A stretch of DNA of 43,950 bases, from positions 1-43,950 of IMG/VR virus record IMGVR_UViG_3300032216_000553. One strand, 5' to 3'. The stretch comes from a virus (taxonomy: Duplodnaviria; Caudoviricetes). Position 1 is the stretch's first letter, and each line of letters opens with the position of its first letter. Below, in pieces: positions 3,219-34,432 of the stretch. Below the pieces are notes generated by a model. The model was not told where the DNA came from, ran no database searches, and worked only from the letters and a program-made list of their open reading frames with translations. A program made the position numbers and the translations under genes.

Positions 3219-3641
3219 AGATTTCTTACGTCCCTGTCGGGCAAATATCTGGACTTATACCAGCGCTTTTGCCATACTTAACCAAGTCTGAGCAGTGGTC
3301 TGACGGGCGCGTATCTGTTGATGATTTACTACGCCTTATGCTCAATGACCTGCTTCAATTGTGGGTCGTGCATGAGGAAACAACCATACACGGTTTCTTT
3401 GGCGTAGAGGTCAAACAATATCCGCAAGCCAAAATGCTGACGGTTCAATACTGTGCAATGGAGACGGGTACTGGATGCGGTAGACAGTCAGATGATGGAC
3501 ATAGCAGAAGATGTTGCCAAGAAATCCGGTTGTGCTGGCGTAGAGTTTATTGGCCGTCCCGGCTGGAAGAAAATTGTTCAAGACCACGGGTACAACGTGC
3601 AAAGCGTCATGTACCAAAAGTTCTTTAAGGAGTACCTATGA
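3215..3641 (+). pseudogene. Acetyltransferase-like (GNAT-type) virion-module gene split by a frameshift near 3470
   Basis: N-half (QLWVVH..GFFGVEVKQYPQAKML) is in the 3215 frame; C-half (AKKSGCAGVEFIGRPGWKK..GY) is in the +1 frame ending at 3641. Together they make one coherent protein of about 142 aa. Confidence 0.7.
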
Positions 3642-4750
3642 GTACCGGTTCCGCACAACAAACGTCAACAACCACAGCGGGCGTATCACCGTTTGCACAG
3701 AATTATGTGAACTCCATGCTGGGTGCCGCACAGCAGCAGGTGTTTAATGTTGACCCCACAAGCAATCAGATTACCGGCATCAATCCTTATCAGGCGTTTG
3801 GTTCACCTGTAGCTGGTTCCCAATATGCGGCAGGTATGGGGCCGGGCGAACAAGCAGCAGCCCAAGCGGCGGTAGCTGGGCCTAGCGGGTTACAACAGCA
3901 AGCCTATCAATCTGCCGGTCAAATGCAGACCCCCGGTCAATTTGGTACCGCTACAGATATTGGTCAGACGGCTGGTTATGGCTTGCTTGGCACGGCTGGT
4001 CAGGCTCAAGGTCTTCAAAACCTCGGTATGCAGGCTGTCCAACAAGGTCAGCAGTATGGTCAAAACCTGACCAACCCAGCCATTACTCAGCAATACATGT
4101 CGCCCTACATGCAGAATGTGGTGGACGTACAGTCGCAACAAGCTAAACGCCAAGCGGCAATTGCAGATCAAACCCGCCAAGCCCAGTCAGCGCGTCAGGG
4201 TATGTTTGGTGGTGTGGGCGATGTGCTTAGTCGCAATCAAGCCAACGCTGAGTTGCAACGTAACCTGCAAGGTATCCAAGCGTCTGGCACACAGAGCGCA
4301 TTTCAGAATGCCCAAGCACAGCAAGCTGCGGCACAGCAACAAGCCATGCAAGGTTTGCAAACTGGCATCCAAGGTTATGGTGCTGGCATTCAAGGTCAGC
4401 AGGGTGCATACGGTACCGCTCTCCAAGGCGCTGGCACTTTAGGTACGTTAGGTTCGCAGCAGCTTTCAGCACAGCAAGGTATTGCAGGATTGCAAAATCA
4501 ATTTGGTCAGCAACAGCAAACCAATCAGCAGGCTGTTATCAACCAAGCTATGCAAAACCTGCAAAATCAAAAGATGTATCCGCAGCAGCAGTTGCAGTAT
4601 CTCAGCGGCATGTTGTCTGGTTTACCGGTTAGTTCTACTGGTAACGTCACTAATATTCCTGCGCCTAATTTGACCTCTCAAATTGCTGGTTTAGGTATGA
4701 CAGGTATTGCCGGTTTGGGCTTGTATAACGCAATGAACCCCATCAAATAA
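3638..4750 (+). CDS. DNA ejection/pilot protein (Gln/Gly/Ala-rich)
   Basis: SD AAGGAG. YMSPYMQNVVD...GMFGG motif and Q-rich coiled segments typical of podovirus ejection proteins. Confidence 0.65.
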   Translation: MSTGSAQQTSTTTAGVSPFAQNYVNSMLGAAQQQVFNVDPTSNQITGINPYQAFGSPVAGSQYAAGMGPGEQAAAQAAVAGPSGLQQQAYQSAGQMQTPGQFGTATDIGQTAGYGLLGTAGQAQGLQNLGMQAVQQGQQYGQNLTNPAITQQYMSPYMQNVVDVQSQQAKRQAAIADQTRQAQSARQGMFGGVGDVLSRNQANAELQRNLQGIQASGTQSAFQNAQAQQAAAQQQAMQGLQTGIQGYGAGIQGQQGAYGTALQGAGTLGTLGSQQLSAQQGIAGLQNQFGQQQQTNQQAVINQAMQNLQNQKMYPQQQLQYLSGMLSGLPVSSTGNVTNIPAPNLTSQIAGLGMTGIAGLGLYNAMNPIK

Positions 4751-6319: not shown

Positions 6320-9300
6320 ATGATCATCACCCTGCCCAAACTCGGCCCAGTACGTTTTGACGATAACTTATCGCCAGAAGAGTTTCAGCAGCAGGTTGAA
6401 ACGCTTTCTAAAAAATACGATTTTAAGATTCCAAAACCCGATGTAGGGATTGGCACCCTCCTTGGGCGGGGGTTTATGCGTGGCATGGGGGAAACAGGTA
6501 TCGCTTTGGGCGACATCCTTCCTGCTATGGGCGCATCTGCGCTTGGTTTTGAAGACTACGCCAAAAAACAAATGGGTGAAGCTGCCGCATCACGTGCGGA
6601 GCTAGAGCGTAAGTACCCCACACAGTTCAAGTCATATGAAGAAATTAGCAGTCCTTATGAGGCACTGCAATACGGCGCAGAAACTTTGGGTGAACTTGGC
6701 CCTACTGCACTGACCGCCATGATTCCCGGTATTGGTGCGGAAGCTGTTGGCGCTAGGTTGGCTGGTCAAAGTGCGCTTCGTGCCGCACAAGCGGCTGGCC
6801 CTGTGTCCCGTGCTGGTCTAGCTGCTGTTGAAAAAACCGCTGAGACTGCTGGTCGCCGTGCAATGTATGGTGGTGTGTATCTTGGGTCGTTTGCCCAGAA
6901 CGCTCCTGAAGTGTTTGAAAGCATCTACAAAGAAACCAACAAGATGGAGCCGGGGATTGCTGCCCTTGCTGGTGGCATCTCATCGCTCTTAGATTCTGTG
7001 GTTCCGGGCCAAGTGATGGACAACTTGGGCAAGTACGGCAAGATGAAGGTTGTTGAGCAGTTGGTCAAAGACTCCGGTGCTGCACCTAAAGTATGGAAGT
7101 ACATCGGCAAAGAAGCTGTTAAGACCGCAGGTGCTGAAGGTCTAACTGAAACCGCGCAAGAGGCTATCAATGCCGCTGCTGAACAAGTTGCTGGTAGTAC
7201 CAAAGGTTTGCTAGACCCAGAGAACATTCAGCGCTTCAAAGAATCGTTTGTCAAAGGTGCAATCGGTGGCGGCGCGTTTGGTACTGTCGGTGGCACAAGC
7301 CAAGGTCTTACTGCACGTAAAGAATACCGCAACACCAAAGAAGCTGAAGAAGCACTGCAAGCCCAGTATGAAGCTGAGAAGGCGGCTGGCACACTTACAC
7401 CCGAGAAAGCTGCTGAATACGAAGCACAAATCGAAGCTGCCCGTAAACAGCGTGAAGCGGAGCTAACTCAAACCTTTGCGGGTCTGCCTGACTTCAACCA
7501 GCGACAAGTTGAGTTGCAAGCATTACAAGCGCGTATGGATCAGGCGCGTCCCGGCTCTCCTGCGTATGCTGAATTGGAAGAAAAGATCAAAGCGGCACAG
7601 GAAGAAGTTGCTGCTGAACAAGCCAAGCAAGCTGAGATTGATGCCAAGAAAGCCGAAGGTAGTGCGTTTGCCAAAGTGCCCCCCACGCCCGGTACTGGTG
7701 GAATGTACAAGCCGGGGCTAGAACAACAACGTGCAGAACAGCAAGCGGCTACCCGTCAGTTTGCGTTTGGGCCTGTAGCTACAAACGTCCCCGGTGACCC
7801 AGTTACTGTTGACACTCTAAAAAATCTTAAGGTGTCTGACCGTTCTAAGGTTGGCATGGAGTTGCTTGGCACTGACCTTGATACTGCCGATGGTCGCCGT
7901 AAATTTATTCAGACGCTGGAGAACCCCAGCTTCATGGGTAACATCGACCCCGCTGCCTACGATGACATCATCAGTACGTTTGACCCCAAAGAGGTCGCTG
8001 CGGCACGTGCTGAAATGAAAGCAGAGACGCTTTCTCCCACAAAGCAGAAACAGCAAGAGCAAACACGAACATTTGCATTTGGAGCACCTAATGTTACAAG
8101 ACCTAACGCCCCATCAGCTGGAGGAAGCGCTGGCATGGCTGGCAAGTCCGATACAGGAGGCACCACCACAACCACTGAAGGAACTGAACCCGGTGGAATG
8201 GTATCTACTGGAACAACTACTGAACAACCTACTGACGGAGAAGGACAGCAGTCCACTACAGTAAATGAAGGAATCGCAACTGATGGCACTACGACCACTA
8301 AAACCCAGCAAACAGAAACGCAAGGACAAGAAGCACCAACCGCTGGAACCCCAACAGTAACTGTTTCAGACCAAGATATTGTGCATGCCAAGTTAGGACA
8401 ACGAGGCGTGAAACTGGATGAGCAGGGTAAGGATGCAAAAGCCTATTTTGGCAAAGTAACGGTTCCGCTTGCGTTGGATTCAATTGCCAACGACTTGGTG
8501 TATCAACCCACGGCGTATCGCAACGCCAAAATGAAAGCGTTTGAGAACCACCCCAATGGCCCTCAACCAGCGTTTAGTAACGAAGCAGAGGCTGCATTTT
8601 TCTTAGGGCAAGGCGGGGTGCATGCTAAAAATGCTGCTGCGTGGGTTCGTGCAAACATGTCCCCAGAATCTGTGGCGTTCATGGAGCAGAAGGTTGCACA
8701 GTACGAGAAAGAAAAGCGCCGGTCTGAATCTGTGCGCCGCCGTCAAGAAGCACAGACTAAAGTTCGCAAAGCCACTAAGCAGCAAGTTGCTGATGAGACT
8801 GCCACTGCTGAAGCTGAAGGCGAATATGTACCGACCAAAGATGACATCAAAGAGTTCTACGGCACCAAATCCAAAGCTGGTAAAGAAAAAGGTCGCCTGC
8901 AACGCCTAGCCAACGAGTTGGCACAGGAAGATTTGTATGGTGATCTGGATAACATTGCAGATAGCGATCTTGGCAACTTGTTGGCAGACGAAGAGCTTGC
9001 CGCGCTACATTCACAGGCCCACCCGGTAGTCTTGAACCAGTTAGCGAATAACAACTTGGTAGGTGCGTTGAACGCGCTGGCCGAAAGCGGTTCGTCTAAA
9101 GGCGCTGAACTTTTTGCACGTCTGCTGGCTAAAGTTGTTGGTGATGTGAATGTTGTGTATGGCGCTGAGAAGTCCATGTACGACCCAAAGACCAACACTG
9201 TGTATCTGCGTGATGGCGCTAGTGAGTACGAGATTATTCACGAGGCATCTCATGCTGCCATGTCTCACGTGCTGGATAACCCATCGCATCCAGTCACTCG

Positions 9301-12300
9301 CCAACTGACAACTTTGTTTAATCAGTTGAAGAGCAGCACTGAAGGAACTTATGGAGCGCAGAACTTACAAGAGTTTGCGGCCGAAGCGTGGAGTAATGAT
9401 GCTTTCCGTAGCCATCTGAAACAGTTCAAACCCACTGGCGAAAAGCTCACTGGTTGGGAGCGGCTGGTCAATGCCGTGCGTCAGTTGTTCCGTTTGCCAC
9501 CCAAGCATGAGACTGCGTTGACTGCAATTGACCGCATGCTCAATGAGATTGTTAGCCCACCACCCGAGACTCGCACGGGTGAAACTTTGTACGCGCAGTC
9601 ACTGCACAATCCTAATGTGGTGCAGGAGATGTTCACAAAGATGAACAAAACCATCCGCAAGCAACCCGTGATGAATACTGAACGTGCAGTTGGGTTTTGG
9701 AAAGCTGCGGAAAAAGTAGGTGCCACGGGCCGCACGTTGATGTACAAGTCGCTGAACTTGTTTGCTTTGGGCGATGTTGCCAAGAAGTATTTGGGTGACA
9801 GTGCTGTCCGATTTGCCAACACTATTGAAGAAATGGCTGGCTATCAGGAGAAGCTGCGTGAGGCAATGATTCCTTTGCACAACCGTCTTGAAGCGTTCCG
9901 TCAGTCTGACCGTTATCAAGCATGGTCTACGCTGGTGAACGACACAACCCGCGAAGATGTGAATCCCGATGCTCCGTTGAGCAAGTACCAAGGCAGTCCT
10001 GAAAAGGTAGCCCAGTGGAAACAGTTCAATGCCCGGTTTAACAAGCTGACAGATTCTGAAAAGAAACTGTACCGTGATTTGTTTGCCACTTACAAAGCTC
10101 TTGATGATGAGTTCTTGAAATCGTTGGAGCGCAATGTCGAGGCCACGGTGGGTGACAAAGCCAAGGCAGCATCTGCTTATCAAAAGATTTTGTTTGAATT
10201 GAGCACCCTGCGTATTGACCACTATGCCCCGCTGTTCCGCGAAGGGCCATTTTGGTTGCAGTACGACATCAATGGAGATGTTGAGAAGCAGACGTTTGCC
10301 TCTGAAGCCGAGCGTGACTTTGCACGTAAGCAACTGGAAGCCAAGGGCGCGACTAACTTTGACGCTTACTCACGCGCTGATCAACTGACTACCAAGACAG
10401 TACCGTCCGGTTCGATGCTTGCCGACATCATGAAGATCATGAAAGACAACGGTGCCGGTGAAGATGCGATTAACGACTTGATACAACTTGTTGTTAAGTC
10501 CATGCCCGAGGCCAGCATCCTCAAGAGCCGTCAGAAGCGTACCGGTATTGGCGGTTACATCGACAACGCAGCTTATGTGTTTGATCGTGTGAGCAGTGGC
10601 ACAGCGCGGCAATTGGCCCGGATGCAGTATGGCCCTGAACTACAACGTCTTGTGAAAGAGATGGAAGAGACGGTCAACAAAGCACGTGGCGATGCAAACA
10701 CCTATGGTGTGGAACTTCTCAAAGAGTTTGAAGGTCGCCGCCAGTTTGCGATGAAGCCCACTCTGTCCAATTTGTCGCAGTTTGCCAGTAGCGGCGCGTT
10801 CTATTACAACTTGGCCGGTAACGTATCTTCTGCACTGGTCAACTTGTTGCAGACTCCCATGATTGTCTTCCCGCAATTGGGTGGTGAGTATGGGTTCAAA
10901 GCTGCTGGTGACGCACTGAACAATGCCCGCAAACTTTATACAGGCAGTGGCTTCTCACGCAAAGTTACCGAACTGACGGGTGAGGCTTCTGATCAAAGGG
11001 CAATGACTTCTATTGAGAACTTGGTCAATGCTGGCAAAGCTGAACGCTATCGTGCCCTCATTGAAGCCATGAAGTCCCAAGGCATGTTGACTACATCAAC
11101 AGCACGTGATGCGTTGTATTCAGAAAACGACAACAAATCACTGTACGGAAGCACAGGCAAACTACAACGTATCACTACGTTGGTAGGCTCGTTCATGTTC
11201 CATCACGCCGAGCGCATGAACCGTGAGATTACCGCAGTGGCTGCATTTGATTTGGAGATGCAGAAGCTAAAGAACTCCAAGATGTCTGATGCGGAAAAGC
11301 AAACGCAAGCCATCAACAAAGCCATGAAGATGGTGGAGTATTCGCACGGTGCTGGTAGTACGCTGTCTGGGCCTAGCCTCGGTCAGAGTGACCTAGGAAA
11401 AGTTTTGATGGTGTTCAAACGCTATGCGTTCAGCATGTACTACATGTTGTTCGATACCATGATGCGTTCGCTCCCCGTGAAAGGTGCGACAGGTGAACAG
11501 CTTGAGCAGATCAAAGCAGCACGTAAACAACTCGCTGGCATTTATGGCATGGCGGCATTGTTCGCAGGTGCGAAGGGCGTACCTTTGTATTGGGTGGCTG
11601 AATTGGCTTACAACATGTTCCAAGGCGATGACGATGATGACTTTGATACTGTCATGCGCGGATTCCTTGGTGACTTTGCGTACAAAGGCCCAGTTAACTA
11701 CCTGACTAACCTGAGTGTTGCTGATCGTGTGGGTTGGACAGACTTGTTGTGGCGTGAGCAAAAAGGTAGCAAAGCCGACGCAAGTGCGTTGTCTCAGTTT
11801 GTGGAGGGGGTGCTTGGTGCTCCGTACTCAATTGCTGACAGCATCTTGCGGGGTAAAGACCTGATGGCCGAGGGCCAGTTTGAGCGTGGCATTGAGGCTA
11901 TGCTGCCTGTGTCTCTGCGTAACATCATGAAGAGCATCCGATACGCAAATGAAGGTGCTAATACATTGCGTGGTGATGCAGTGGGAGATGTGAACGGTTA
12001 CAACGCTGCCATGCAGATATTAGGTTTTGCACCCGCTGACCTGATGAAGCAGTACGAAGAAAATGCGTACATGACTGGCAAAGCCAAAGCCATCCGCACT
12101 CAAGAGAAAAACGCACTAAAGAAATACTATGCGGCTATGCGGGAGGGTGATACCGATGGCATGATGGACGCGCAAGAAAAGTTGTTTGACCTTGGTACAA
12201 AGTATCCCGAGTTGGGTATTACCCAAGACACACTGAATAAGTCAGTAGCTTCCCGCGAACGCATTTCAAGAGAGATGTATCACGGTGTGCAACTTGACCG

Positions 12301-12352
12301 TAAGCTGGCACCGTATCTGAGGCAAGCCGCAGCAGGAGCATACGGCGAATAA
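6320..12352 (+). CDS. Giant internal virion/ejection (polyvalent) protein with zincin-like metallopeptidase domain
   Basis: 2010 aa, last gene of the structural arm. IIHEASHAA followed by a downstream QEFAAEA motif; hydrophobic helices at the N- and C-termini. Confidence 0.7.
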   Translation: MIITLPKLGPVRFDDNLSPEEFQQQVETLSKKYDFKIPKPDVGIGTLLGRGFMRGMGETGIALGDILPAMGASALGFEDYAKKQMGEAAASRAELERKYPTQFKSYEEISSPYEALQYGAETLGELGPTALTAMIPGIGAEAVGARLAGQSALRAAQAAGPVSRAGLAAVEKTAETAGRRAMYGGVYLGSFAQNAPEVFESIYKETNKMEPGIAALAGGISSLLDSVVPGQVMDNLGKYGKMKVVEQLVKDSGAAPKVWKYIGKEAVKTAGAEGLTETAQEAINAAAEQVAGSTKGLLDPENIQRFKESFVKGAIGGGAFGTVGGTSQGLTARKEYRNTKEAEEALQAQYEAEKAAGTLTPEKAAEYEAQIEAARKQREAELTQTFAGLPDFNQRQVELQALQARMDQARPGSPAYAELEEKIKAAQEEVAAEQAKQAEIDAKKAEGSAFAKVPPTPGTGGMYKPGLEQQRAEQQAATRQFAFGPVATNVPGDPVTVDTLKNLKVSDRSKVGMELLGTDLDTADGRRKFIQTLENPSFMGNIDPAAYDDIISTFDPKEVAAARAEMKAETLSPTKQKQQEQTRTFAFGAPNVTRPNAPSAGGSAGMAGKSDTGGTTTTTEGTEPGGMVSTGTTTEQPTDGEGQQSTTVNEGIATDGTTTTKTQQTETQGQEAPTAGTPTVTVSDQDIVHAKLGQRGVKLDEQGKDAKAYFGKVTVPLALDSIANDLVYQPTAYRNAKMKAFENHPNGPQPAFSNEAEAAFFLGQGGVHAKNAAAWVRANMSPESVAFMEQKVAQYEKEKRRSESVRRRQEAQTKVRKATKQQVADETATAEAEGEYVPTKDDIKEFYGTKSKAGKEKGRLQRLANELAQEDLYGDLDNIADSDLGNLLADEELAALHSQAHPVVLNQLANNNLVGALNALAESGSSKGAELFARLLAKVVGDVNVVYGAEKSMYDPKTNTVYLRDGASEYEIIHEASHAAMSHVLDNPSHPVTRQLTTLFNQLKSSTEGTYGAQNLQEFAAEAWSNDAFRSHLKQFKPTGEKLTGWERLVNAVRQLFRLPPKHETALTAIDRMLNEIVSPPPETRTGETLYAQSLHNPNVVQEMFTKMNKTIRKQPVMNTERAVGFWKAAEKVGATGRTLMYKSLNLFALGDVAKKYLGDSAVRFANTIEEMAGYQEKLREAMIPLHNRLEAFRQSDRYQAWSTLVNDTTREDVNPDAPLSKYQGSPEKVAQWKQFNARFNKLTDSEKKLYRDLFATYKALDDEFLKSLERNVEATVGDKAKAASAYQKILFELSTLRIDHYAPLFREGPFWLQYDINGDVEKQTFASEAERDFARKQLEAKGATNFDAYSRADQLTTKTVPSGSMLADIMKIMKDNGAGEDAINDLIQLVVKSMPEASILKSRQKRTGIGGYIDNAAYVFDRVSSGTARQLARMQYGPELQRLVKEMEETVNKARGDANTYGVELLKEFEGRRQFAMKPTLSNLSQFASSGAFYYNLAGNVSSALVNLLQTPMIVFPQLGGEYGFKAAGDALNNARKLYTGSGFSRKVTELTGEASDQRAMTSIENLVNAGKAERYRALIEAMKSQGMLTTSTARDALYSENDNKSLYGSTGKLQRITTLVGSFMFHHAERMNREITAVAAFDLEMQKLKNSKMSDAEKQTQAINKAMKMVEYSHGAGSTLSGPSLGQSDLGKVLMVFKRYAFSMYYMLFDTMMRSLPVKGATGEQLEQIKAARKQLAGIYGMAALFAGAKGVPLYWVAELAYNMFQGDDDDDFDTVMRGFLGDFAYKGPVNYLTNLSVADRVGWTDLLWREQKGSKADASALSQFVEGVLGAPYSIADSILRGKDLMAEGQFERGIEAMLPVSLRNIMKSIRYANEGANTLRGDAVGDVNGYNAAMQILGFAPADLMKQYEENAYMTGKAKAIRTQEKNALKKYYAAMREGDTDGMMDAQEKLFDLGTKYPELGITQDTLNKSVASRERISREMYHGVQLDRKLAPYLRQAAAGAYGE
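8091..8264 (+). CDS. Putative overprinted small protein (57 aa) in the +1 frame of the giant gene
   Basis: GGAG at 8081-8084, ATG at 8091. Amphipathic-helix-like sequence MLQDLTPHQLEEALAWLASP...EWYLLEQLLNNLL. The main frame is low-complexity here. Confidence 0.55.
   Translation: MLQDLTPHQLEEALAWLASPIQEAPPQPLKELNPVEWYLLEQLLNNLLTEKDSSPLQ
8283..8360 (+). CDS. Putative overprinted basic peptide (25 aa)
   Basis: AAGGA upstream of ATG 8283. MALRPLKPSKQKRKDKKHQPLEPQQ, same +1 frame as the 8091 ORF. Confidence 0.35.
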   Translation: MALRPLKPSKQKRKDKKHQPLEPQQ

Positions 12353-12380
12353 AAAAAGACCCCGACCGAAGTCGGGGTTC
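12351..12380 (-). terminator. Rho-independent terminator at the convergence of the two arms
   Basis: On the - strand: GAACCCCGAC-TTCG-GTCGGGGTC followed by T7. Confidence 0.9.
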
Positions 12381-12420
12381 AAGGAGACAGCAACTAACAG
12401 GAGAGAGTGACAAGTTGCTA
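12351..12420 (-). ncRNA. Candidate small RNA with anti-Shine-Dalgarno loop
   Basis: Extended -10 (TGcTAGAGT, 12434-12426) upstream. 7-bp stem AGCAACT/AGTTGCT with 17-nt loop TGTCACTCTCTCCTGTT, then the terminator. Confidence 0.5.
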
Positions 12421-12439
12421 GGCGAACTCTAGCACACTG

Positions 12440-12643
12440 TCAAATGATTCGCCAGAATCTCACCCCTTGCATGTCGCGCTCCAGTACAAAACGTAGTTTT
12501 ATTTTCATACCCCGCTCTTTAGCGTAGGCTATTACTTGTTCTGCAACATCATGGCGATCTAAGCACGGTATGTAGAAGGAACTTCCTACTACAAACTTAT
12601 GCCATTCTATTACAACAGGTACGCCATCAGCCTTTATTGTCAT
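12440..12643 (-). CDS. Small hypothetical protein
   Basis: ATG at 12643 overlaps the primase end. VGSSFYIPC...GVRFWRI motif resembles small phage DNA-binding proteins. Confidence 0.65.
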   Translation of the reverse strand: MTIKADGVPVVIEWHKFVVGSSFYIPCLDRHDVAEQVIAYAKERGMKIKLRFVLERDMQGVRFWRII

Positions 12644-15473
12644 GGCTAGTTTGGACTTCACCCTCGGGGTCAAGCTCCGTTGCTACTGAACAGTCGATCA
12701 CCAGTGCAAACACCGATGGGGTCGCAATGTCCGAACCTTTGGACAGACTCTTCTTAATCACGCCTGTGGTGATCTTGTTTTTCTGCAAGTCTTCGCACAG
12801 CATCTTGTAAGAGATTTGGTTGTCACTGCACCATTCACGCAATGCTTTTGAAGAGATGTAGAGCAACTTCTTATCAGGCTCGTATCTCGTCATCAGCTCT
12901 CCACGGGGTTCACGGATTGGCGCTTCGGTAAGCCCCGACCGTTTGTCCACGTTGCTGTTGATGATGAGCATATTGTTGTTGTTCTCGTTGAGGAACATAC
13001 CGATGCGGCTCAATGGGGTCATGCCATCAGAGCGCACTTCAACCCGCATGCGGCTCAATGTAGCAACTGCCCACTCATAAACTTTCGATACGTCAATGTC
13101 GTGCAGACCCAACTTCTTGGTAATGATGCCCGATGTGATGGCGCATGCTGCCGTTGCTGACCAAAAGCGTTCGCGTTGTGTAAACCCTGCGGCTTTATCT
13201 AACTTGCGTTGGACTGCTGCTAAAAGGCGTTGCACTTCAGGCAGGTTGGCGATCACGTAACGTATAAAGATTTCACCAGCCACCCCAAAGTTTTCGTACA
13301 TGGGGTTGAACATGGCATCTGATTCAGCCTTACTGAGGTTGTCGTTCTTGGCAACTGCAAACTCCAGTACCCGCATGAGTTCGCCCTCGGGAAAGTCTTT
13401 GAGGTTATACAACTGATCGTACAAACTCTTGTTGCCTGATGTAATCGCAATTAAATACCAGCGCAGTGAATTGCTACGCTCTGCATTAGTCTGCGACTGC
13501 ATGCGGTTACGGCCTCGACCATGCGTAATAGCGTAAGCCATCGCACTGACTTCTTCGTCAGGCATGTTGGTCAACTCGTCAATTGTCGGGGGCAGATTGC
13601 CAAGCACCGATACACGGTGCATACGCGCCAAGTATTTATCTTCTTGGTTCATCAACGGTTCAACAGGGCGACCCCAAATACTATTCACCAAAAGTTGGAT
13701 CGTGGTTTTACCTACTCCTGAGCCATTGTTTGTCAGGTGAATGATTGCCCCGTTTAATTTCGTGAACTTGTAAAGCGCAGACCCAAAACCTGCGAACAGG
13801 GTGAAGGCACGTACTTCATTGCCGGGCGCTGCGTAGATGTTGGCAACCTTCTTCCACTCTGCTACCGTACCTTTCTTTGTGTAGTAGGCGGCAACTTCTG
13901 CGGTTGCATTTGATGAGGGGCTGTAGTTAACCCCTGATGCGGTAACTTCGCGGTTGCCAATAATGAACTTGGTGTCATCTTCATGCCAACCAAATTGTTG
14001 CCGTGCTTTTTCTGCTTCAGACATATGTTGTAACTCCTGTACCCATTTTGTTATGTAACCCATAAGTGCATCCAATCGTTTGTTGTAGGCAGTGACCCCT
14101 TGGAATGCCAGCACCTCACGCAGCTTGTCTTTAGATAAAACGCTGGAAAGCGGTGCGGAAAATTCACGGATTCCATCTTTGGGCATATGCAAACGCATCC
14201 ACAAAGATTCCCCAGTGTCAGGGTCATCTAGCCTTTTGACTACGTAGAAGTCGTACTCATAAACCAATTCATCTTTTTGGTCTTCGCCCTTCTCGTCTTT
14301 GCCCCAACCTCGCTTGTAAACACCGCCATTTTTGCCACGGAAATATGGATGCGGATACTCGGGGATTTCAACCGTCACATCTTCTTCAAGCACTGCGTTA
14401 CGCATCACAACGATGTTGTCTTCCGCCTTGGCTTCAGCAATACGTGCCCCGATCTGTATGGGTGATGTGATCTTGCCTTTGTTAGGGCAGTCTTGGCATG
14501 GTGCGGAATTAATGCCAGTGAAGGTTGTGCATTTGTATGGCTTGTCGCGTAGTGCGTTGGCTTTGTTAAATGTCTCGTGCGGGTCGTACTCAGGGTGCTG
14601 ATTACTAATCTTGTGGATGGATGTTTCTCCATCTTCACAGTTGACTGCGATAGAAAGCCCTGCCCTCCACAGCGGTTCTTCTACAGTATCTTGTTCGCGG
14701 TAGATGCGGAGCAGTTGAGCGCAGCCTTCACCTTCAATACTTTTACGCATGATGGTCGTAAACTTTGATACGCTGTTACCCATCAAAGCGCGAGTCGTTG
14801 CGTCTATTGGTCTACGAGGCGGGGTGTCGGAGCCAAACAAACCAGTGGGTTCATCAGGTTCATCTTCGACACCTATCAACGTCTTGAACCGTGCAAACTC
14901 CACGGGCTGCGACTCTACCAATACAGCGACTTGTTTAGGTGGGCTGTCTTTATAGTTCAGCGTTTCGGGTATGCGTAAGATTCGTGCGGCATCTGCTGTA
15001 ACCGCAGGGTCTGCGTCTAGGTTGTAAGAAGCACAAAACTTTTTCAGTGCTTCGGCTGTTGGCTTCCAATCGTTGTAGCCAATAGTTTCCGTCAGTGTCC
15101 AGTAAACGTGTATGCCACGCCCTGAGTTGACAATAGTGGGTCGAGGTAGCCCAGTTGTTTTAACAAATTGTCTGAGGGCATCCAATGCGGATGCTTGTGT
15201 GGCGTATGGTTTGTTTTCCCCGCAATCAAGATCAAGCCAAAATGCTTTGAACCACTTTGCGTTTTTCGCTGTGCGGCCTTCAGTATCTAGCAGGTACTTG
15301 GCACAACCAAAGTATGTGTCGTACCCCTGTGTAATCAGGCCATCAACTACGCCATCAATCTCATCAACTGTTTCTACAAATGTTTGCCTCACCACGCTCT
15401 TCTTCAACCCAACCACGCAATACAAACCTTCAGGGGCAAGCACGGTGGAGAGAAAGTTAGTCCGTGATGTCAT
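12627..15473 (-). CDS. Primase-helicase (N-terminal AEP/RepB-like primase, Cys cluster, DUF927-like superfamily 3 helicase)
   Basis: WLDLD, SGRGIHVYW and RILRIP primase motifs; C..C..C cluster; Walker A GSGVGKTT and Walker B TIDE. Confidence 0.85.
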   Translation of the reverse strand: MTSRTNFLSTVLAPEGLYCVVGLKKSVVRQTFVETVDEIDGVVDGLITQGYDTYFGCAKYLLDTEGRTAKNAKWFKAFWLDLDCGENKPYATQASALDALRQFVKTTGLPRPTIVNSGRGIHVYWTLTETIGYNDWKPTAEALKKFCASYNLDADPAVTADAARILRIPETLNYKDSPPKQVAVLVESQPVEFARFKTLIGVEDEPDEPTGLFGSDTPPRRPIDATTRALMGNSVSKFTTIMRKSIEGEGCAQLLRIYREQDTVEEPLWRAGLSIAVNCEDGETSIHKISNQHPEYDPHETFNKANALRDKPYKCTTFTGINSAPCQDCPNKGKITSPIQIGARIAEAKAEDNIVVMRNAVLEEDVTVEIPEYPHPYFRGKNGGVYKRGWGKDEKGEDQKDELVYEYDFYVVKRLDDPDTGESLWMRLHMPKDGIREFSAPLSSVLSKDKLREVLAFQGVTAYNKRLDALMGYITKWVQELQHMSEAEKARQQFGWHEDDTKFIIGNREVTASGVNYSPSSNATAEVAAYYTKKGTVAEWKKVANIYAAPGNEVRAFTLFAGFGSALYKFTKLNGAIIHLTNNGSGVGKTTIQLLVNSIWGRPVEPLMNQEDKYLARMHRVSVLGNLPPTIDELTNMPDEEVSAMAYAITHGRGRNRMQSQTNAERSNSLRWYLIAITSGNKSLYDQLYNLKDFPEGELMRVLEFAVAKNDNLSKAESDAMFNPMYENFGVAGEIFIRYVIANLPEVQRLLAAVQRKLDKAAGFTQRERFWSATAACAITSGIITKKLGLHDIDVSKVYEWAVATLSRMRVEVRSDGMTPLSRIGMFLNENNNNMLIINSNVDKRSGLTEAPIREPRGELMTRYEPDKKLLYISSKALREWCSDNQISYKMLCEDLQKNKITTGVIKKSLSKGSDIATPSVFALVIDCSVATELDPEGEVQTSHDNKG

Positions 15474-15536: not shown

Positions 15537-15785
15537 TTAGGATGCGGATGTAGCCGCTAGACGCTCAAGCAGTTCTGATAATACTTTGCGTTTATCGGGG
15601 TGCGGTAAGGATTTCCCCAAGAACCAAAGATAAATCGCCTGACGTGATACGTTGAGATAATCAGCAACATCCTGTACGGGAATGTCGCGTTCTATGCAGA
15701 TGCGCCCAAGCTGCACACCCAAATGAAATGGGTCTGCCGTCTTGTTGGCATCAACAAATTTACGAGAGTAGCCTCTGTTGTTCAT
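15537..15785 (-). CDS. XRE/Cro-like HTH protein
   Basis: PVQDVADYLNVSRQAIYLWFLG helix-turn-helix. Confidence 0.8.
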   Translation of the reverse strand: MNNRGYSRKFVDANKTADPFHLGVQLGRICIERDIPVQDVADYLNVSRQAIYLWFLGKSLPHPDKRKVLSELLERLAATSAS

Positions 15786-16107
15786 ATTCGTCTTTGCTAA
15801 CTACTTTCATTACGCGCTGACTACGACCTGAACGTGCTTTACGTTTTTCGCCTGTATCAACAATCCAACCCTTGCGAATCAGTGGGGCGTAACGTGGGCT
15901 AATTGTTTGTATGCCGTATTGAGGCAACATCTTCACAACGTCATCACCAATGCACCCGTTGGGAAACTGCTTGATGACTTCGTAAACGATGTGCTCCAGT
16001 TCGGTGGTATCAATTGACTCGGCGGCTTCATGGCTCGTCTCGGGGTCAGTGTCACGTGCCAAACCGGGGTTTAGGTTTGGCTCACTCGACAAATGATCTT
16101 GTTGCAT
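15760..16107 (-). CDS. Hypothetical winged-helix-like protein
   Basis: SD AAGGAG. ARDTDPETSHEAA and SPRYAPL..GWIVDTGEKR..SGR motifs common in phage proteins. Confidence 0.7.
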   Translation of the reverse strand: MQQDHLSSEPNLNPGLARDTDPETSHEAAESIDTTELEHIVYEVIKQFPNGCIGDDVVKMLPQYGIQTISPRYAPLIRKGWIVDTGEKRKARSGRSQRVMKVVSKDEYEQQRLLS

Positions 16108-16121
16108 GTCACTCTCCTTAT

Positions 16122-16200: not shown

Positions 16201-17081
16201 TACTCAGCCCAGTCGTCCAAGATGTCAGCCACATCTTTTGGTGCGGCTTTCTTAGCGCGTTTGGTAGGCTCGGCTTCTTCGACCGTTTCAGCAGCTACCT
16301 TGGGTTGCGCTTTGGGGGCAGGGGCTTCCTCCACAGGCGCGGCAATCTTTGGCTTCACGTTATCCATCTGTGCAACCGTTGCAGCGACCGCAGCCTTGGC
16401 TTCGGGGCTACGGCCTTTCTCTTGTGCCATTTCCAACTCTTCAGCTTCCAAGGGACGCACGGCTTTGAAGGTCAGGCGGGGCGTTGCGCTTGAGGTATCA
16501 AAACGCATCTCGGTCACAACGGCGGTCACGGGCAGACCATGACTACCCAAGAACTTAGCATATGCTTGCAGAGGCATTTTGCCGCTTTCAGCCGCACCAA
16601 AGATTGACTGTGCGGGGAGCGTCAATTGATAAATGTCTCCACGAATATCGTTCTCCAAGAGGACGGCAAGGCGCTGGCTGAAACGGCATGCACGTGAGTC
16701 ACCTTGGCCTGAGCCTTTGATGTTTTGAGCGCATGAGGCGCACTTGCTTGCTTGCGGTGATTCGACCTTGATGTCGGGTGTGATGCCATCGTTTGACCAG
16801 CATGAGGGTGCTGTAGATTGGCCTTCTTGGTATGTGCCTTCATAGTAACTTCTTGATACGTTCGCATTAGCTGCCGCGATGACGATGTTCATCGAACGGT
16901 CTTCGTTCTGTGCAACTTCTTTACCGTCAACCATCATACGGAAGACGCCGCCACGGATAGAGATACGCTTGCCACCAGTGCCGCCACCCATCAGGGCTTT
17001 GGTTGTCTCGTCCAGTTGCAGGTTCTTAAGGTGTGCGGGAAGGTTGTTGCCGCCTTTAGAAAACAGGGTCATTTCACTCAT
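16200..17081 (-). CDS. Putative single-stranded DNA-binding/annealing protein
   Basis: RISIRGGVF, CWSNDG..C..C..N..GS...CR motifs, Ala/Pro linker and acidic tail (ILDDWAE). Located in the replication module. Confidence 0.6.
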   Translation of the reverse strand: MSEMTLFSKGGNNLPAHLKNLQLDETTKALMGGGTGGKRISIRGGVFRMMVDGKEVAQNEDRSMNIVIAAANANVSRSYYEGTYQEGQSTAPSCWSNDGITPDIKVESPQASKCASCAQNIKGSGQGDSRACRFSQRLAVLLENDIRGDIYQLTLPAQSIFGAAESGKMPLQAYAKFLGSHGLPVTAVVTEMRFDTSSATPRLTFKAVRPLEAEELEMAQEKGRSPEAKAAVAATVAQMDNVKPKIAAPVEEAPAPKAQPKVAAETVEEAEPTKRAKKAAPKDVADILDDWAE

Positions 17082-17269
17082 TTGGTTTCTCCAGTTGTTA
17101 CAGATTTGGGTTGCATAAGGGCGTTGATGTCAGCGCGGTTAAACCGCACTTTGGCACCTACCCTGAAATGTGGGATTGTTCCCGCTTTGATCATGTTGTA
17201 AACGGTCTGCCGTGACATCCGCAGTAGCTTTGCAACTTCGGGTACGGTTAACGATGCTTCAAGTTCCAC
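17078..17269 (-). CDS. Excisionase-like HTH_17 DNA-binding protein
   Basis: LTVPEVAKLLRMSRQTVYNMIKAGTIPHFRVG. Confidence 0.85.
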   Translation of the reverse strand: MELEASLTVPEVAKLLRMSRQTVYNMIKAGTIPHFRVGAKVRFNRADINALMQPKSVTTGETK

Positions 17270-17666
17270 CTGTGGTTCTCCTTATGGTTACGCTGTATTT
17301 GCTGTCTATGTTCATGCCTACCGGCATGAGGTCAGGGTTCTCCTCCAGTAGTTGCTTCATGGTAGTTTGACTGACGCGCCTCTCCAGCAGTTCAGGCATC
17401 TTGTGTTCCAAGATAAACTTGTGCAGGGCTTCCCAGTCGCTTGTCCAGTAGCGTGTCTTCACAGTACGCATTACCGTACCGTGTTTGCTACCGAGTTTGT
17501 CGGCACCGATTTCCTTGCAGAGTTCCAATAACTTGGCTTCCACAAGCTCCATTTGTGCCTTCACAGAGCCGTCAACTTCTTCGTAGTCGCGTAGAAGTTC
17601 AGCCCTTTTGTCGCGCATCTTGATGTAAGCGGCGACGAGTTTATCAACCGATATTGTCTCGGTCAT
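17259..17666 (-). CDS. Conserved phage replication-module hypothetical protein
   Basis: SD AGGAG, ATG at 17666. Coiled N-terminus and DWEALHKFI..LLERRV motif. Confidence 0.7.
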   Translation of the reverse strand: MTETISVDKLVAAYIKMRDKRAELLRDYEEVDGSVKAQMELVEAKLLELCKEIGADKLGSKHGTVMRTVKTRYWTSDWEALHKFILEHKMPELLERRVSQTTMKQLLEENPDLMPVGMNIDSKYSVTIRRTTGGT

Positions 17667-17695
17667 GTCACTCTCCTGTTGATATTGTGATTGAA

Positions 17696-17723
17696 ATAAT
17701 AGCCGAAAATTTAACAATGTCAA
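17696..17723 (-). promoter_or_regulatory. Sigma-70-type promoter
   Basis: TTGACA-16 bp-TATTAT in the intergenic gap upstream of 17666. Confidence 0.6.
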
Positions 17724-17730
17724 GCGTTGT

Positions 17731-19287
17731 TCATCTTAGTATTTCCCCGTAGAGGTCAATGATTCTGTTGTGGATGTCCACCTTGTTTTCCAGCATCCGG
17801 TACATGCGCTTCTCGACACCACTGCCTTGTAGATGAACAACCACTGACGGGTTTTTCTGCCCTGCGCGATGCACTCGGGCGTTACATTGCAAGTAAGTCT
17901 CCACGGACATCACCGGACTCCAGTAGACAATCGTATTAGCCGCATGCAGGGTCACCCCGTGCGATGCTGCCTGTGGTTGTATGACCAACACTCGTAGGTC
18001 ATCTTTGGTTTGGAACCGCTCAAAAATTTCTGAACGCTTCCCTGCTGATACACCACCGTGAATGATGGCTGTCGGAAACCCATGCTGACGTAGGTCTTCA
18101 GCAACTACTTCGATGGCATGTCTGTATGGCACAAACACCAACACCTTGTGGCTAGACTCCTCCACTACTTCACGTAGAACCGCCAGTCGGTTGCTTGCGT
18201 CAAACTGAATCACTTCACCAGTGTCGGAATACACCGCGCCACCGGATAGTTGTAGTAACTTATTCAGATTAGCTGCCGCATTGACTGTCGTAATCTCCTC
18301 ACCAGCGGCTTGTACGATCAAACGCTTGCGTAGCAGCTCGTAGTATTTCTCTTGCTGTGCAGTAAGTGGTACGTCTCGCGTTACATAAGTCATCTCGGGC
18401 AAGTCCAAGCATTGCTCTTTTGTAAACCGAATAGCTGGCTGTAGCGCACGATGGACAACTTGTTCCGAATCTAGCTTCGGTATCCATTTGAACTGACTGA
18501 TCTTGTGCATTACCTGATCACGGAAGCCACCAAAGAACCGTGGGATTCCCTGCGGGTTAACCAACTTGGCGATGCCGTAAGCATCCAGCGGTGACTGCGA
18601 TGCGGGGGTGCCTGTCAGCATCCACAACCACGTGTCTGGCTTAAGCAAGTTGTTCAATACCTTCCAACGTCTTGTAGAGGGATTTTTATAGGCGTTAGCC
18701 TCGTCAATAACGATGAGGTCAAAACCACCCTTGGCGATGTCATTGGCAACAATCTCCACACCGTCATAGTTGACGATCACATACTCAGCACCCCCTGCGA
18801 TGATCTCCCTACGTTTCTCCGGTTTGCCGTAGGCAACGTCTACCTTGCGGTGCATTGCGAACTTGAACAAGTCATTGCGCCATGCCGAATCCATGATGGA
18901 CAACGGGCAGATAACCAGCACCCTCTTGATGATGCCCTTCGACATCAGATAGTCCGATGCCCAAATTACCGAACCTGTCTTGCCTGTGCCCTGCTCGTTA
19001 AAACAGAACGACCGCCGGTGCATCGTCAAGAAAGACGCTGTAACTTTTTGATGGTCAAACGGTTTATAGAGACCCGGCCATTTGTATGTAGCGTTGATGG
19101 GTGAAGGTACATCCTTGATCTTGAGATTCTTCAAAACGATGGACTCTTCCAAATCCCAATTGACCAACACCTCCGCAACTTCGCCATCATCTGCCAACAC
19201 CTTGCTCTTTGGTATCACCGTGGTGATACGGTCAGGGTTGCGTACCTTTAGCAGTAAGGCACGGTTATCTATGATCTGCATCGTCAC
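17731..19287 (-). CDS. SNF2-family helicase
   Basis: EQGTGKT, VIDEA, LTGTP, GVTL and ARVHRAGQ motifs. Confidence 0.9.
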   Translation of the reverse strand: MTMQIIDNRALLLKVRNPDRITTVIPKSKVLADDGEVAEVLVNWDLEESIVLKNLKIKDVPSPINATYKWPGLYKPFDHQKVTASFLTMHRRSFCFNEQGTGKTGSVIWASDYLMSKGIIKRVLVICPLSIMDSAWRNDLFKFAMHRKVDVAYGKPEKRREIIAGGAEYVIVNYDGVEIVANDIAKGGFDLIVIDEANAYKNPSTRRWKVLNNLLKPDTWLWMLTGTPASQSPLDAYGIAKLVNPQGIPRFFGGFRDQVMHKISQFKWIPKLDSEQVVHRALQPAIRFTKEQCLDLPEMTYVTRDVPLTAQQEKYYELLRKRLIVQAAGEEITTVNAAANLNKLLQLSGGAVYSDTGEVIQFDASNRLAVLREVVEESSHKVLVFVPYRHAIEVVAEDLRQHGFPTAIIHGGVSAGKRSEIFERFQTKDDLRVLVIQPQAASHGVTLHAANTIVYWSPVMSVETYLQCNARVHRAGQKNPSVVVHLQGSGVEKRMYRMLENKVDIHNRIIDLYGEILR

Positions 19288-19293
19288 TCCTCG

Positions 19294-20748: not shown

Positions 20749-20776
20749 ATGTCACTCTTTCTTCAAAGTAAAACGT

Positions 20777-22798: not shown

Positions 22799-24605
22799 AG
22801 CTCTCTCCAAATCCTGCCTCGCAGTTCAGTGGTATGCCTTCAGCCCACGTAGGTGTGTAACGCATACACTCCATCACGTAAGCCATAGCTTCTTTGGCTT
22901 CTTCTTTTGGTGCAATACACGCCACAGCGTCATGCACAGTTAGCACTACCTTATAACGCTTACTTATGTGTATAAGCTGTTCACCAATGATGCAACGTGC
23001 CAAACCCTGACAAATGTTCTCTGTCAATTTGCCACCGTAGAGCTTCGTCACACCCTTGCGTGAGTCATAAATATACTGCTCTTTTCCGTCTTTGTCTTTA
23101 ACTTTTTTGAGGTTTGGGTAGCGTTGATATAAGCTGTTTGGCATCAGAATGCCACCCGCTCCGATAGCCACCGCTCCGTTACCCCACTTGGCAGTTTGAC
23201 CCTTACTCATTGCGGCAATTGCTGATGAACCTTGTGCCCACAGCGCAGGGATTTTGGGGTACGTCTCGCGGTACACACTTATGATTCGTTGGGTTTCCTC
23301 CAGCGATGTGTCAACACCAAACGTCTTGAGCTGCGTTTGGAATTTATTTGCACCCATGCCATATCCCGCACCCAAGATCGTAGTCTTGCCGACAAACCGC
23401 TCCTGTTTGTCAATCGCTTCGACATCCTTGTTATAAATAGCCGATGCCATGATTTTGTATACATCTTCGCCCTTTCTAAATGCTTCGGTTAAATCGTCCT
23501 GTCCAGCAAACCATGCCAGCACTCGCGCTTCGATTTGTGATGAGTCGCAGTCAATGATGACGTGACCCTCGGGCGCAAGGATGGCTGACTTGAGCTTGCC
23601 AGCGTTCTCACCACGTGACGGGAAGTTTTGGAAATTCAGTTTGTCCGAACCACCCCACCGTCCGGTGTGTGCGGCATAGTAAGAGAGGGGAACAGGTATC
23701 AAACCTCTTTCCGCGATGGCCAGCAGGCGCTCTGTACGTGTCTCCTCTAAAGTTGTTTTGTTGCCCAACCTTGCCGCTACCAAAATCTGCACACGTTCAT
23801 CAGGGTGTTCAGCCAACGCTTTGAATCCCTCGTCACTCTTCGCCATAGCCAACGTCTCTTTGCCCGTGGTCGGTGAAATTTTCATGGGGGGTTCAACGCC
23901 CAGTCCACGTAGTAGTTCTGCAAACTTCTGATTCGACATCAGGTCGTCCACAGTTGCACCACTTTCAACCAAGAGCTTGCGCTTGCGTCCCTTCACATCT
24001 ACAAGATGTTGCTGTAACAGCGGTACGTTGAGTCGCAACACCGGCTCTGTGAACATTCGTATGGTAGTGTCAACTAACTTAAGCTCCGTCTTCTGAAACT
24101 GCGGGAGCAAGGTCATGAACAAGTCATACGTCAGGTTCACGTCATTGATACAGTACGCCCCATACTGAGCAAGCTGTTGCTCTGTGAAGTCTTCACGGCG
24201 CAGGTTGATAGCCCACGTGGTGTCGTTGCCCTTCTTGCCTAGTTGGTAGTAGGTAGTTAGCTTGTCCAAGCTGTTGCCCACCTCAGTACCGTGTATCGCA
24301 CGTGCCATGCTCAACGTATCGGCAATTGCTTTAGGTCGGATGTTGAAGTGCCAGTTCAAAATCGCCATGTCGAATAGCGCGTTGTGGGCAATGGCAATAC
24401 TGCTGTTCCAATCGAACCGTGAAAGAAACTCGTGCGTCTCCTCGCGTGTCCCACTGAACCATTCAGTCTCGCCATCACCCACCTTCACCGCCACCCCGAT
24501 CACATGGAATCGAGGGTCACGTACATACTCCTCGGTCGTTTGTTTCTTGAAGCCCAAGTCACCGTTGGTGTAGTACGTCTCAAAGTCTATGGTTAGGATT
24601 TTCAT
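22785..24605 (-). CDS. polA: DNA polymerase family A with 3'-5' exonuclease
   Basis: Exo DFET and HNALFD; HTGRW; motif A DSSQIEAR; motif B RFVGKTTILGAGYG; motif C VHDA. Start moved to ATG 24605. Confidence 0.95.
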   Translation of the reverse strand: MKILTIDFETYYTNGDLGFKKQTTEEYVRDPRFHVIGVAVKVGDGETEWFSGTREETHEFLSRFDWNSSIAIAHNALFDMAILNWHFNIRPKAIADTLSMARAIHGTEVGNSLDKLTTYYQLGKKGNDTTWAINLRREDFTEQQLAQYGAYCINDVNLTYDLFMTLLPQFQKTELKLVDTTIRMFTEPVLRLNVPLLQQHLVDVKGRKRKLLVESGATVDDLMSNQKFAELLRGLGVEPPMKISPTTGKETLAMAKSDEGFKALAEHPDERVQILVAARLGNKTTLEETRTERLLAIAERGLIPVPLSYYAAHTGRWGGSDKLNFQNFPSRGENAGKLKSAILAPEGHVIIDCDSSQIEARVLAWFAGQDDLTEAFRKGEDVYKIMASAIYNKDVEAIDKQERFVGKTTILGAGYGMGANKFQTQLKTFGVDTSLEETQRIISVYRETYPKIPALWAQGSSAIAAMSKGQTAKWGNGAVAIGAGGILMPNSLYQRYPNLKKVKDKDGKEQYIYDSRKGVTKLYGGKLTENICQGLARCIIGEQLIHISKRYKVVLTVHDAVACIAPKEEAKEAMAYVMECMRYTPTWAEGIPLNCEAGFGESYGDC

Positions 24606-25941: not shown

Positions 25942-26050
25942 TCACTCTCTCCTTATTAAGTAATTTGAGTATGGCTAAGTAGAACTCGTAGGGGTCAGCA
26001 CCGCACCTAATCCATAAGCTCCTACATTCCATAGGTTGTAACTTCTTCAT
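25919..26050 (-). CDS. Hypothetical protein (43 aa)
   Basis: GAGGA SD; fills the gap. Confidence 0.4.
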   Translation of the reverse strand: MKKLQPMECRSLWIRCGADPYEFYLAILKLLNKERVNDTGEKS

Positions 26051-31871: not shown

Positions 31872-32041
31872 ACCATCTCCTCCACGGGTTGGCGTAACTC
31901 ATGGGCTACGCATGCACCCCACGTTTTACTGTGAGTTTGTGCCCACATCAGGGCTTGCTCTTCACTGTCAAACAGTCCGAACACTTCGCTTGGCTCGTAG
32001 TCAAAGAACAATGTGACTACCCATTTCTTGTCGTTGTTCAT
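31868..32041 (-). CDS. Hypothetical protein
   Basis: AAGGA SD, ATG at 32041; FGLFDSEEQA..WA. Confidence 0.6.
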   Translation of the reverse strand: MNNDKKWVVTLFFDYEPSEVFGLFDSEEQALMWAQTHSKTWGACVAHELRQPVEEMV

Positions 32042-32765
32042 GTCACTTTCCTTTCGAGTTTCAAATTTCAAACGATGGCGAAACTGCCACCGCATAGCAC
32101 ACAGTTCGGTTCCTCTCGGTTCTTCCCTATGTGCTACACGTTATAGTTTCTTGATGTTTCGGTTTGTTTAGTGTTGGCTGTTCTAACTGCGATAGTGTTT
32201 GTCGTTCACGCATCTCCCATTTCCCATTTGTGGTCAAATTCCCACCGTGGGAAAACGGCTCGTGTTCCTAGAAGTTGTTGGTATGTGTTCGGTTTGTGTC
32301 GTCAGGCTTGCCGCCCATCAATAAATAAAATCAACACTCACTCTCACATACATACTCTTCGTTAGGGTTGTTGCACGTCTCCATGCAGAGCACCCCACAC
32401 GCACCAGCATTCACTCACGCTCATGCTGATTTAAGCAGTATCTATTTGGCTTTGCGCTTTGCTATCGGTCTTGTTCGGTGCGATTTGGCACACTACTGAC
32501 TTACACCACAAAGTGCCCCGACTGACTACGGGACGCCTATTCACGCATGGAAGGTTTCATGGGTTGTATGTATCGTGGGCTTCGCAATCCATCCTATACA
32601 TACAGACCTTTCTACCTTTGCGCTTCTTGCATCGAGCAAGCGGCGGTTTAGTTTGCAATTTCCCACCGTGGGAAATCGCTGGTTTGGCATGTTGTTAAAG
32701 AGCATGGCGGATAGGCGAAAGGCGAGGACGATGCCTGCATTTCTTAATCTAACCAACCAGCCTAC

Positions 32766-34035: not shown

Positions 34036-34432
34036 GATGTCCCTTTCAATGTGCAGATTGTTAAGGTAAGTATGAATCGACCGCACCTCGCCGATCCATG
34101 AATGAATTACACCACAAGTAGCTACAGATTGCACGGGATAGCACGGGCTTGACACCTAGGGCATCACAATTTCCCACCGTGGGAAGATCGACCCCCCACC
34201 CCCTAGATTCGGCCGGGTCTTTTGGGGCGGGCCTATGCACTGTAATATGCACAACCAAACAAAACGAAAAATATAAAAGACCCCCCTACCCCGTGCAAAT
34301 TTTCATAACCGTTAACCCCGTCCAATATAGATAACACCCCCCAACATCTTTGTATGTGAAATACCCCCACCCCATATATAATTTTTAAAAAAGCGTGTAC
34401 ACTTCGCACAAATTGGAGCCACAAACCGCGCC

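Follow-up and report, generated by a model that had tools for sequence, protein, structure and literature searches.

A candidate anti-Shine-Dalgarno small RNA at the end of a phage replication operon covaries with the leaders of early genes

Described anti-ribosome-binding-site RNAs and the phage locus

CarZ and OppZ of Vibrio cholerae are chromosomal, autoregulatory small RNAs derived from 3' untranslated regions, and the accessible part of their description has them cut by RNase E from a transcript with a single promoter and binding Hfq (PMC7398697). The betaproteobacterial "toxic" or double-hairpin small RNAs (Rfam RF02278), as far as the accessible portions of two papers describe them, measure 57-92 nt and contain two hairpins and two C/U-rich stretches directed against ribosome-binding sites (RBSs), being encoded on the host chromosome in several copies, with predicted metabolic targets (PMC5688073, PMC4603805). 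In phages P1 and P7, the available part of the source presents the c4 antisense RNA as a molecule of about 77 nt with three stems, processed by RNase P and controlling the antirepressor operon in lysogeny (PMC5320573). Moreover, of the phage regulatory RNAs covered in the accessible portion of a 2025 review of phage small RNAs, most are either antisense to a single overlapping gene, active in lysogeny or aimed at host mRNAs, and that portion contains no self-targeting case such as the one described here (PMC12197685). No description of the present element was found in the literature, where coverage of subscription papers was thin, and the part of the supplements of the Fremin 2023 viral RNA catalogue that could be compared gave no match (PMC10690425); the element may be an unnamed candidate there.

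The window, that is, the whole stretch of 43,950 nucleotides analyzed here, corresponds to about 70% of a tailed phage genome of about 60-65 kb, judging from complete relatives. Its minus strand, from about 34000 to 12440, carries replication and other early-type genes, among them polymerase A, an SNF2 helicase, an exonuclease and a DUF927 primase/helicase, and the plus strand carries the virion genes. Where the two blocks converge, a gap of 87 bases houses the RNA element. The replication operon is headed by a gene for a 135-aa protein behind a TTGACA-type promoter, this sigma-70-type early pattern being found in 33 of 38 distinct regions upstream of the operon, and the terminator of the RNA lies 4.6-5.7 kb further on. 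The main features of this setting are as follows.

6320..12352, plus strand: 2010-aa virion-type protein, DarB-like (PHROG10089), convergent, its stop abutting the U tract of the terminator
12440..12643, minus strand: 67-aa gene, the last of the operon, used as anchor for finding relatives
12627..15473, minus strand: 948-aa primase/helicase (DUF927), from profile matches
17078-17269 and 15537-15785: HTH_17 and HTH_3 genes, respectively, within the operon, from profile matches
17259..17666, minus strand: 135-aa protein, first gene of the operon, predicted as a long helix plus a beta part (model pLDDT 83)
17696..17723, minus strand: sigma-70-type early promoter of the operon, TTGACA ... TATTAT

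The 67-aa gene has no Pfam or PHROG match. In the early block, an AAA ATPase adjoins a DUF2201 metallopeptidase/VWA gene (27856-30216, minus strand), and the virion block includes a GroES-like gene at 40140-40562. A search for bacterial copies or prophages returned only a 12-residue match at chance level in bacterial genome contigs, and the names of homologs of two proteins gave no host.

Set against the accessible description of CarZ, the phage element likewise closes an operon at its 3' end, shares the operon's terminator and is complementary to the translation start of the first gene (as in CarZ-carA); the combination typical of CarZ and OppZ, in which an operon's 3' end is complementary to one of its own start regions, is found here. 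However, it differs from what is described for these RNAs in its own conserved -10 motif, its phage setting and a wider set of early-strand targets, and a likeness in sequence is not to be expected. The element also resembles the RF02278 RNAs, as described in the portions available, in its predicted small size, its pair of hairpins and its two unpaired C/U-rich stretches directed against RBSs, whereas it is single copy, resides in a phage and has covarying targets in its own genome. Although RF02278 is its best Rfam match, the score is 26.7 bits, short of the cut-off of 50, and arises from the UCUCC motif and the terminator only. Of 20 relative loci, 9 reach 23.5-28.6 bits, and none of 5 records passes the cut-off; no match at gathering level was obtained in the window. 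As for c4, the likeness to the account consulted consists in a phage-encoded RNA whose loops would base-pair in trans with mRNA of the phage itself and occlude the RBS, with a variable part for specificity, whereas the phage element is two-stemmed and its predicted targets are replication-phase genes. The C4 Rfam model is absent from the 8 matches in the window to E 10. The antirepressor operon of a temperate phage, the context of c4, was not found either: no antirepressor was detected among the window proteins or in 75 of the 120 additional proteins encoded by complete relatives, nor a tyrosine integrase (PF00589) in five of five complete relatives. On the other hand, short imperfect complementarity to several distant RBSs under selection, as expected of trans-acting anti-Shine-Dalgarno (anti-SD) small RNAs, is present.

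Architecture and conservation of the element

The element comprises the following parts, all on the minus strand.

12351-12434, minus strand: whole unit, running from the extended -10 through the C/U-loop hairpin and the C/U linker to the terminator
12426..12434, minus strand: extended -10 TG-n-TAGAGT (TGCTAGAGT), a promoter predicted from sequence, with no canonical -35
12351..12419, minus strand: predicted small RNA of about 68 nt from the fold, with a presumed start at 12419
12389..12419, minus strand: stem-loop 1, with a 7-bp stem (12419-12413 / 12395-12389)
12396..12412, minus strand: 17-nt C/U-rich loop, the putative main anti-SD seed from matches and covariation
12381..12388, minus strand: second putative anti-SD stretch (GTCTCCTT) in the linker, which is C/U-rich and conserved
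12351..12378, minus strand: intrinsic UUCG terminator with U7, ending both the RNA and the replication operon

What the preliminary description had stated on the sequences of the -10, the 7-bp stem, the 17-nt loop, the linker and the UUCG terminator is exact base for base. The MFE and centroid structures agree with this layout, with a fold z-score of -2.26 and equal stability in 5 of 200 shuffles, and the loop is predicted to be mostly unpaired. Only three intergenic matches to TGnTAnAnT exist in the window, the -10 of the RNA among them; generic promoter-scan output does not include this promoter because it has no -35. A reading on the plus strand, with a GGA loop acting as a protein decoy, was set aside, since the promoter motif and the U tract point to the minus strand. 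In the plus orientation (12352-12420) no U tract follows the hairpin, and late transcripts may read through, giving a full antisense to the RNA.

Relatives were retrieved via the neighboring proteins. Of the 44 close records, namely the window and 43 relatives, 43 have behind the 67-aa gene a unit of 66-79 nt that is bounded by an extended -10 and a terminator, as judged with a permissive pattern and with one record set by hand. In distant phages, in which the operon's first gene shares 39-62% identity, the primary sequence is unrelated and the layout recurs: 40 of the 53 usable loci hold, according to a script, an intergenic element together with a terminator, and of its 13 misses, 5 have the element by eye, 7 lack it and 1 is unclear. 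The terminator shows compensatory changes in 7 of 8 pairs (34 distinct copies). Stem 1 is paired in 93% of cells in 34 sequences, with changes to both partners seen in a single pair out of 6, and the RNAalifold consensus did not recover it, preferring another hairpin over the -10. In alignment A2 the rows were picked by the -10 pattern, which makes the invariant -10 columns circular, and they were left out of the evidence.

A covariance model built from the close copies locates distant copies at the operon end (558 kb scanned) and gives one match only in the window, at 89.7 bits. The same model has no match in a complete genome that lacks the 67-aa gene, nor in the cultured distant relative Pseudomonas phage Rollin, and at this place another cultured distant relative, Rhizobium phage RHph_TM3_14A, has a short terminator gap only. 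Among the loci examined, at least 7 distant ones have no element, as do 6 records that also lack the small gene. The element is dispensable in the phage group, then, because some members, one complete genome included, do without it.

Some loci depart from the common layout. In G004 (L005:11063-11148), the RNA copy is degenerate, with many changes in stem and linker, and the first gene ranks 24 of 77, which could reflect decay. One distant clade (L434, L435, L424 and L425) has 2-4 copies of a tandem 10-bp repeat of the TTGTATGGAG type, with GGA motifs, at the operon end before the C/U element. The distant relative L129 carries a tRNA-Met gene at 10175-10251 (plus strand), the position held by the RNA in others; no tRNA was found in 13 stretches from 4 relatives.

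The loop covaries with early leaders across phages, and not with late ones

In this genome, the loop matches the leaders of several genes on the early strand. The six leader matches of the preliminary description are all in place (25942, 17666, 16107, 20750, 19283 and 32041), and a further strong one, at 26567-26580, did not figure in it. The predicted targets are as follows.

17666..17680, minus strand: start and leader of the gene heading the operon, 15 bp interrupted by a 2-nt bulge (two overlapping 10-mers), the best conserved predicted target
25942..25953, minus strand: leader of an endonuclease (VRR-NUC-like), 12 bp, top rank in this genome
26567..26580, minus strand: leader of the 66-aa gene starting at 26565, rank 2 of 50
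22801..22808, minus strand: leader of the Sigma70_r4-domain gene (22115-22798)
19283..19291, minus strand: leader of the SNF2 helicase, 7-nt match at 19283-19289
16107..16118, minus strand: leader of a 115-aa gene, 10-nt match at 16107-16116
20750..20758, minus strand: leader of a 71-aa gene, 9-nt match
32041..32047, minus strand: leader of a 57-aa gene, 7-nt match, a weak prediction

Loop matches of at least 9 nt outside the element fall on the minus strand in eight of eight cases; six of these, at five genes, directly precede a called start and two (26192 and 29121) do not. The linker stretch at 12381..12388 is the predicted pairing site for the leaders of 19868, 24790 and 17269. In an accessibility-aware ranking of the 50 called genes, scripted with ViennaRNA, rechecked with uniform leaders and based on gene starts from our own caller, which rewards SD cores, the best 15 are all early-strand genes, led by 25941, 26565 and 17666, and early and late leaders differ with p 0.005. 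When the loop flanks were shuffled 1000 times with the CTCCT core fixed, the real loop was better on the six best early leaders (p 0.001), whereas late-strand leaders were bound no better than under this null (p 0.85). The match exceeds the expectation for a generic anti-SD sequence because the shuffled-flank null is beaten for early leaders. Regarding the shared GAGUGA(C)-type leader that had been proposed for these genes, an AGUGA class does exist here (7 of 33 early leaders) but not in G002 (0 of 27), whose loop has the same GUCAC end, so this class is specific to this genome in that comparison. The leaders of 27829, 30216 and 31206 (minus strand) share an identical 14-base end, GAAAGGAAATCATC, and form a second leader class that matches the RNA poorly.

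In a comparison covering 57 gene families, the loop of each phage was set against the cognate leader and against permuted ones. First among the families is the 135-aa gene with its start at 17666, with z -5.85 (23 loops, p<=5e-5), in permutations that treat related genomes as exchangeable, a kinship effect that the late-gene control, the tree pairs and the held-out set offset only in part. Its mean energies are -20.3 kcal/mol for cognate and -16.7 kcal/mol for permuted leaders (23 loops). The next five families are likewise early-strand, and no late family among the 57 goes beyond z -2.0. In independent pairs taken from a primase tree, the gene is again the first, of 46 families, with the cognate favored in 8 of 9 informative pairs (p 0.039, uncorrected). 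The held-out set comprised 91 loci, 68 with a parsed RNA, from which pairs already seen were dropped; here the first gene replicates, with p<=5e-5 for 13 loops and p 0.001 for the 8 unseen ones, being the only one of nine families tested in close loci to do so, as eight others, helicase included, did not. Also, across 29 distant lineages the first gene gives z -6.5, with 24 in the right direction and 5 against it, and the leaders of the 293-aa gene, primase and helicase show a cognate effect too, three other families showing none. Within genomes, the first gene ranks 1-5 among all genes in 15 of 19 and poorly in four (G004, G014, G023 and G046).

The pairing idea at the core of the preliminary description held up with regard to conservation, covariation of loop and RBS, and shuffled controls, and its target list fared unevenly. 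The 17666 gene is a conserved and covarying target, whereas the VRR-NUC leader shows no covariation (p 0.13); its label rests on the PHROG93 endonuclease family and a weak Hjc match. The helicase leader has a cognate effect in the discovery set (p 0.0009) and in the distant lineages (p 0.001) but not in the held-out close loci (p 0.33). The VRR-NUC and helicase matches are real in this genome and not consistently conserved. In one clade (G021, G023, G031, G033 and G049) the loop is without the long CU run and the first-gene leader changes from GGAG-A to GGAG-T; these leaders carry their own upstream TTCCTC, a possible cis hairpin that would replace repression in trans.

The product of the first gene has no fold match in the PDB. 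Its BFVD structure matches, Gp157 (E 3e-5) and a host-nuclease inhibitor (E 1e-3), indicate a weak likeness of the modeled fold to Gp157 or Gam-like host-nuclease inhibitors, which may serve as a lead. PHROG13900 labels it a minor head protein, a doubtful label because the gene sits in the replication operon. The family is large and uncharacterized, with about 2100-3900 matching stretches estimated in IMG/VR, and on this account the mechanism proposed below could be common in lakes and seas.

As a class, and with at most 22 leaders taken per genome, early-strand SD leaders show a cognate effect of z -7.4 (21 genomes, 405 leaders; right direction in 20 of 21), whereas late-strand leaders show none, at z +0.5 (15 genomes, 251 leaders). 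Without the first gene and with no maximum per genome, the early value is z -6.9, or -5.2 when limited to those 15 genomes. Since host SD style or base composition would touch late leaders too, the absence of any effect there argues against shared style. Moreover, the early strand accounts for 180 of 190 top-10 predicted targets, versus a background of 0.54.

The base that follows GGAG is A in 36 of 51 early families versus 6 of 25 late ones. In distant phages with the element, A follows GGAG in 91 of 133 early versus 23 of 49 late cases, and in those without it in 40 of 88 versus 18 of 41. GAGAG or GGAGAA leaders occur in 81 of 250 early versus 7 of 151 late cases in phages with the element, and in 34 of 168 versus 8 of 145 in element-less phages, the records of which represent few lineages. 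Because the split between early and late persists in element-less phages, purine-rich early leaders are partly independent of the element.

Readings of the element and its possible timing

The most likely reading, to which we give a probability of about 0.7 from sequence analysis, is that of a trans-acting anti-SD small RNA that represses the phage's own early genes and is anchored on the operon's first gene. We infer that the element is transcribed, acts in trans and represses. An extended -10 promoter dedicated to it, located where the replication operon has its 3' end, would drive an RNA of about 68 bases, and the C/U-rich loop and linker of this RNA would base-pair with the SD and start regions of the phage's early-strand mRNAs, blocking translation. 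The anchor target would be the cistron heading the operon, whose start at 17666 lies about 5.2 kb upstream; this would create a negative loop on the operon, and each phage would add a further, changing set of early-strand targets. An RNA of this kind appears to be directed at a class of genes in its own phage via their RBSs, with natural compensatory changes across dozens of lineages, and it would offer a phage with no RNA polymerase of its own a route to down-shift its replication genes. Also, the loci provide ready natural pairs of cognate and non-cognate small RNAs and leaders for testing how anti-SD RNAs gain specificity.

It is unlikely, although it accounts for several observations, that the unit is instead the 3' end of the operon mRNA, processed or pairing within the same transcript, with a CarZ-like feedback on the first cistron only and a -10 that is no promoter. 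The element does end an operon whose first gene is its best target, this gene alone of nine families replicated in held-out close loci, there is no -35, and CarZ is a precedent. Nonetheless, TG-n-TA-n-A-n-T keeps promoter-type positions and spacing in the close copies and in 29 of 40 distant ones (many overlapping a TGA stop), and the signal at class level is still there once the first gene is taken out. Moreover, in 21 of 24 loops the seed is predicted to be masked to a greater degree in a read-through mRNA than when the upstream sequence is shuffled, the mean opening cost being 6.1 versus 3.2 kcal/mol (2.1 for the RNA alone), with p 0.20 in this genome and masking bases that are coding and inherited. 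An inverted repeat, TGCTAG-N7-CTAGCA (spacer 7-8 nt), lies over the -10 and start (12416-12480, minus strand); together with loop-complementary upstream coding bases, it could mask the seed in read-through mRNA.

A generic anti-SD RNA aimed mainly at host mRNAs, whose matches to phage leaders would follow from the common SD usage of the host, is decidedly improbable. The best Rfam match and the two-hairpin layout with two C/U stretches, as in the Burkholderia RNAs so far as the accessible text describes them, would suit it, whereas the late leaders, read by the same ribosome and of the same genome composition, show no cognate advantage, and the shuffled-flank null is beaten on the early strand only. 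The repressor of early phage genes favored here may have additional host targets besides the phage leaders.

Still less plausible is a double-stranded DNA site for a phage protein at the early leaders, inverted at the operon end and involving no RNA pairing. Two comparisons meant to separate these cases do not set RNA pairing apart from dsDNA, as the G-U share is 0.43 versus 0.43 and sense against antisense gives p 0.06 in distant and p 0.81 in close phages; the HTH_17 and HTH_3 genes of the operon could likewise be cited for such a site. However, the matches fall on the SD and the start codon in a single orientation throughout, the copies need bulges and G-U pairs (for example, L116 with 15 bp and two G-U), and within the element these sequences occupy single-stranded regions flanked by a promoter motif on one side and a covarying terminator on the other. 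Finally, a terminator region alone, with C/U stretches due to chance or mutational bias, has a modest fold z-score and absence of the element in some relatives on its side but is hardly credible against replicated covariation with a late-gene control, and a same-strand bias would yield likeness rather than complementarity.

Returning to the proposed repressor of early genes, its promoter differs from the early ones. TTGACA is present at early promoters in 33 of 38 and 18 of 18 cases, whereas a TTG[AC][CA] -35 occurs in 1 of 30 distinct copies of the RNA promoter. The motif G(n)TAnAnT[TC]C[GC], a pattern chosen after the sequences were seen, is found at 23 of 30 RNA promoters and in 14 of 18 regions before the terminase operon, versus 0 of 38, 1 of 18 and 0 of 18 at early promoters; before another late family it is found in 0 of 19. 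In the window, the counterpart is the following.

34397..34406, plus strand: candidate late promoter -10 before the terminase operon, resembling the -10 and downstream bases of the RNA (12424-12433, minus strand)

The promoter motif, the seed masking and the lack of a tyrosine integrase in five complete relatives suggest a late shut-off role. We put at about even odds that the promoter is of the late class and that the RNA helps shut down replication-phase translation as the virion genes come on. A joint reading goes further and is offered tentatively, as one that we doubt somewhat more than we believe: aquatic lytic phages of about 60 kb would switch from early to late translation by an RNA and not by a protein, by means of a small RNA from a late promoter that silences an early regulon. 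Under it, a phage-specific SD extension, avoided by late genes, would mark the early-strand regulon, seed and regulon would co-evolve while the primary sequence of the RNA turns over completely, and the seed would be masked while part of the early mRNA, in a phage group that would be very widespread. As a separate observation, the Sigma70_r4-domain gene (22115-22798) would be a candidate activator of the motif-bearing promoters and is itself a predicted target.
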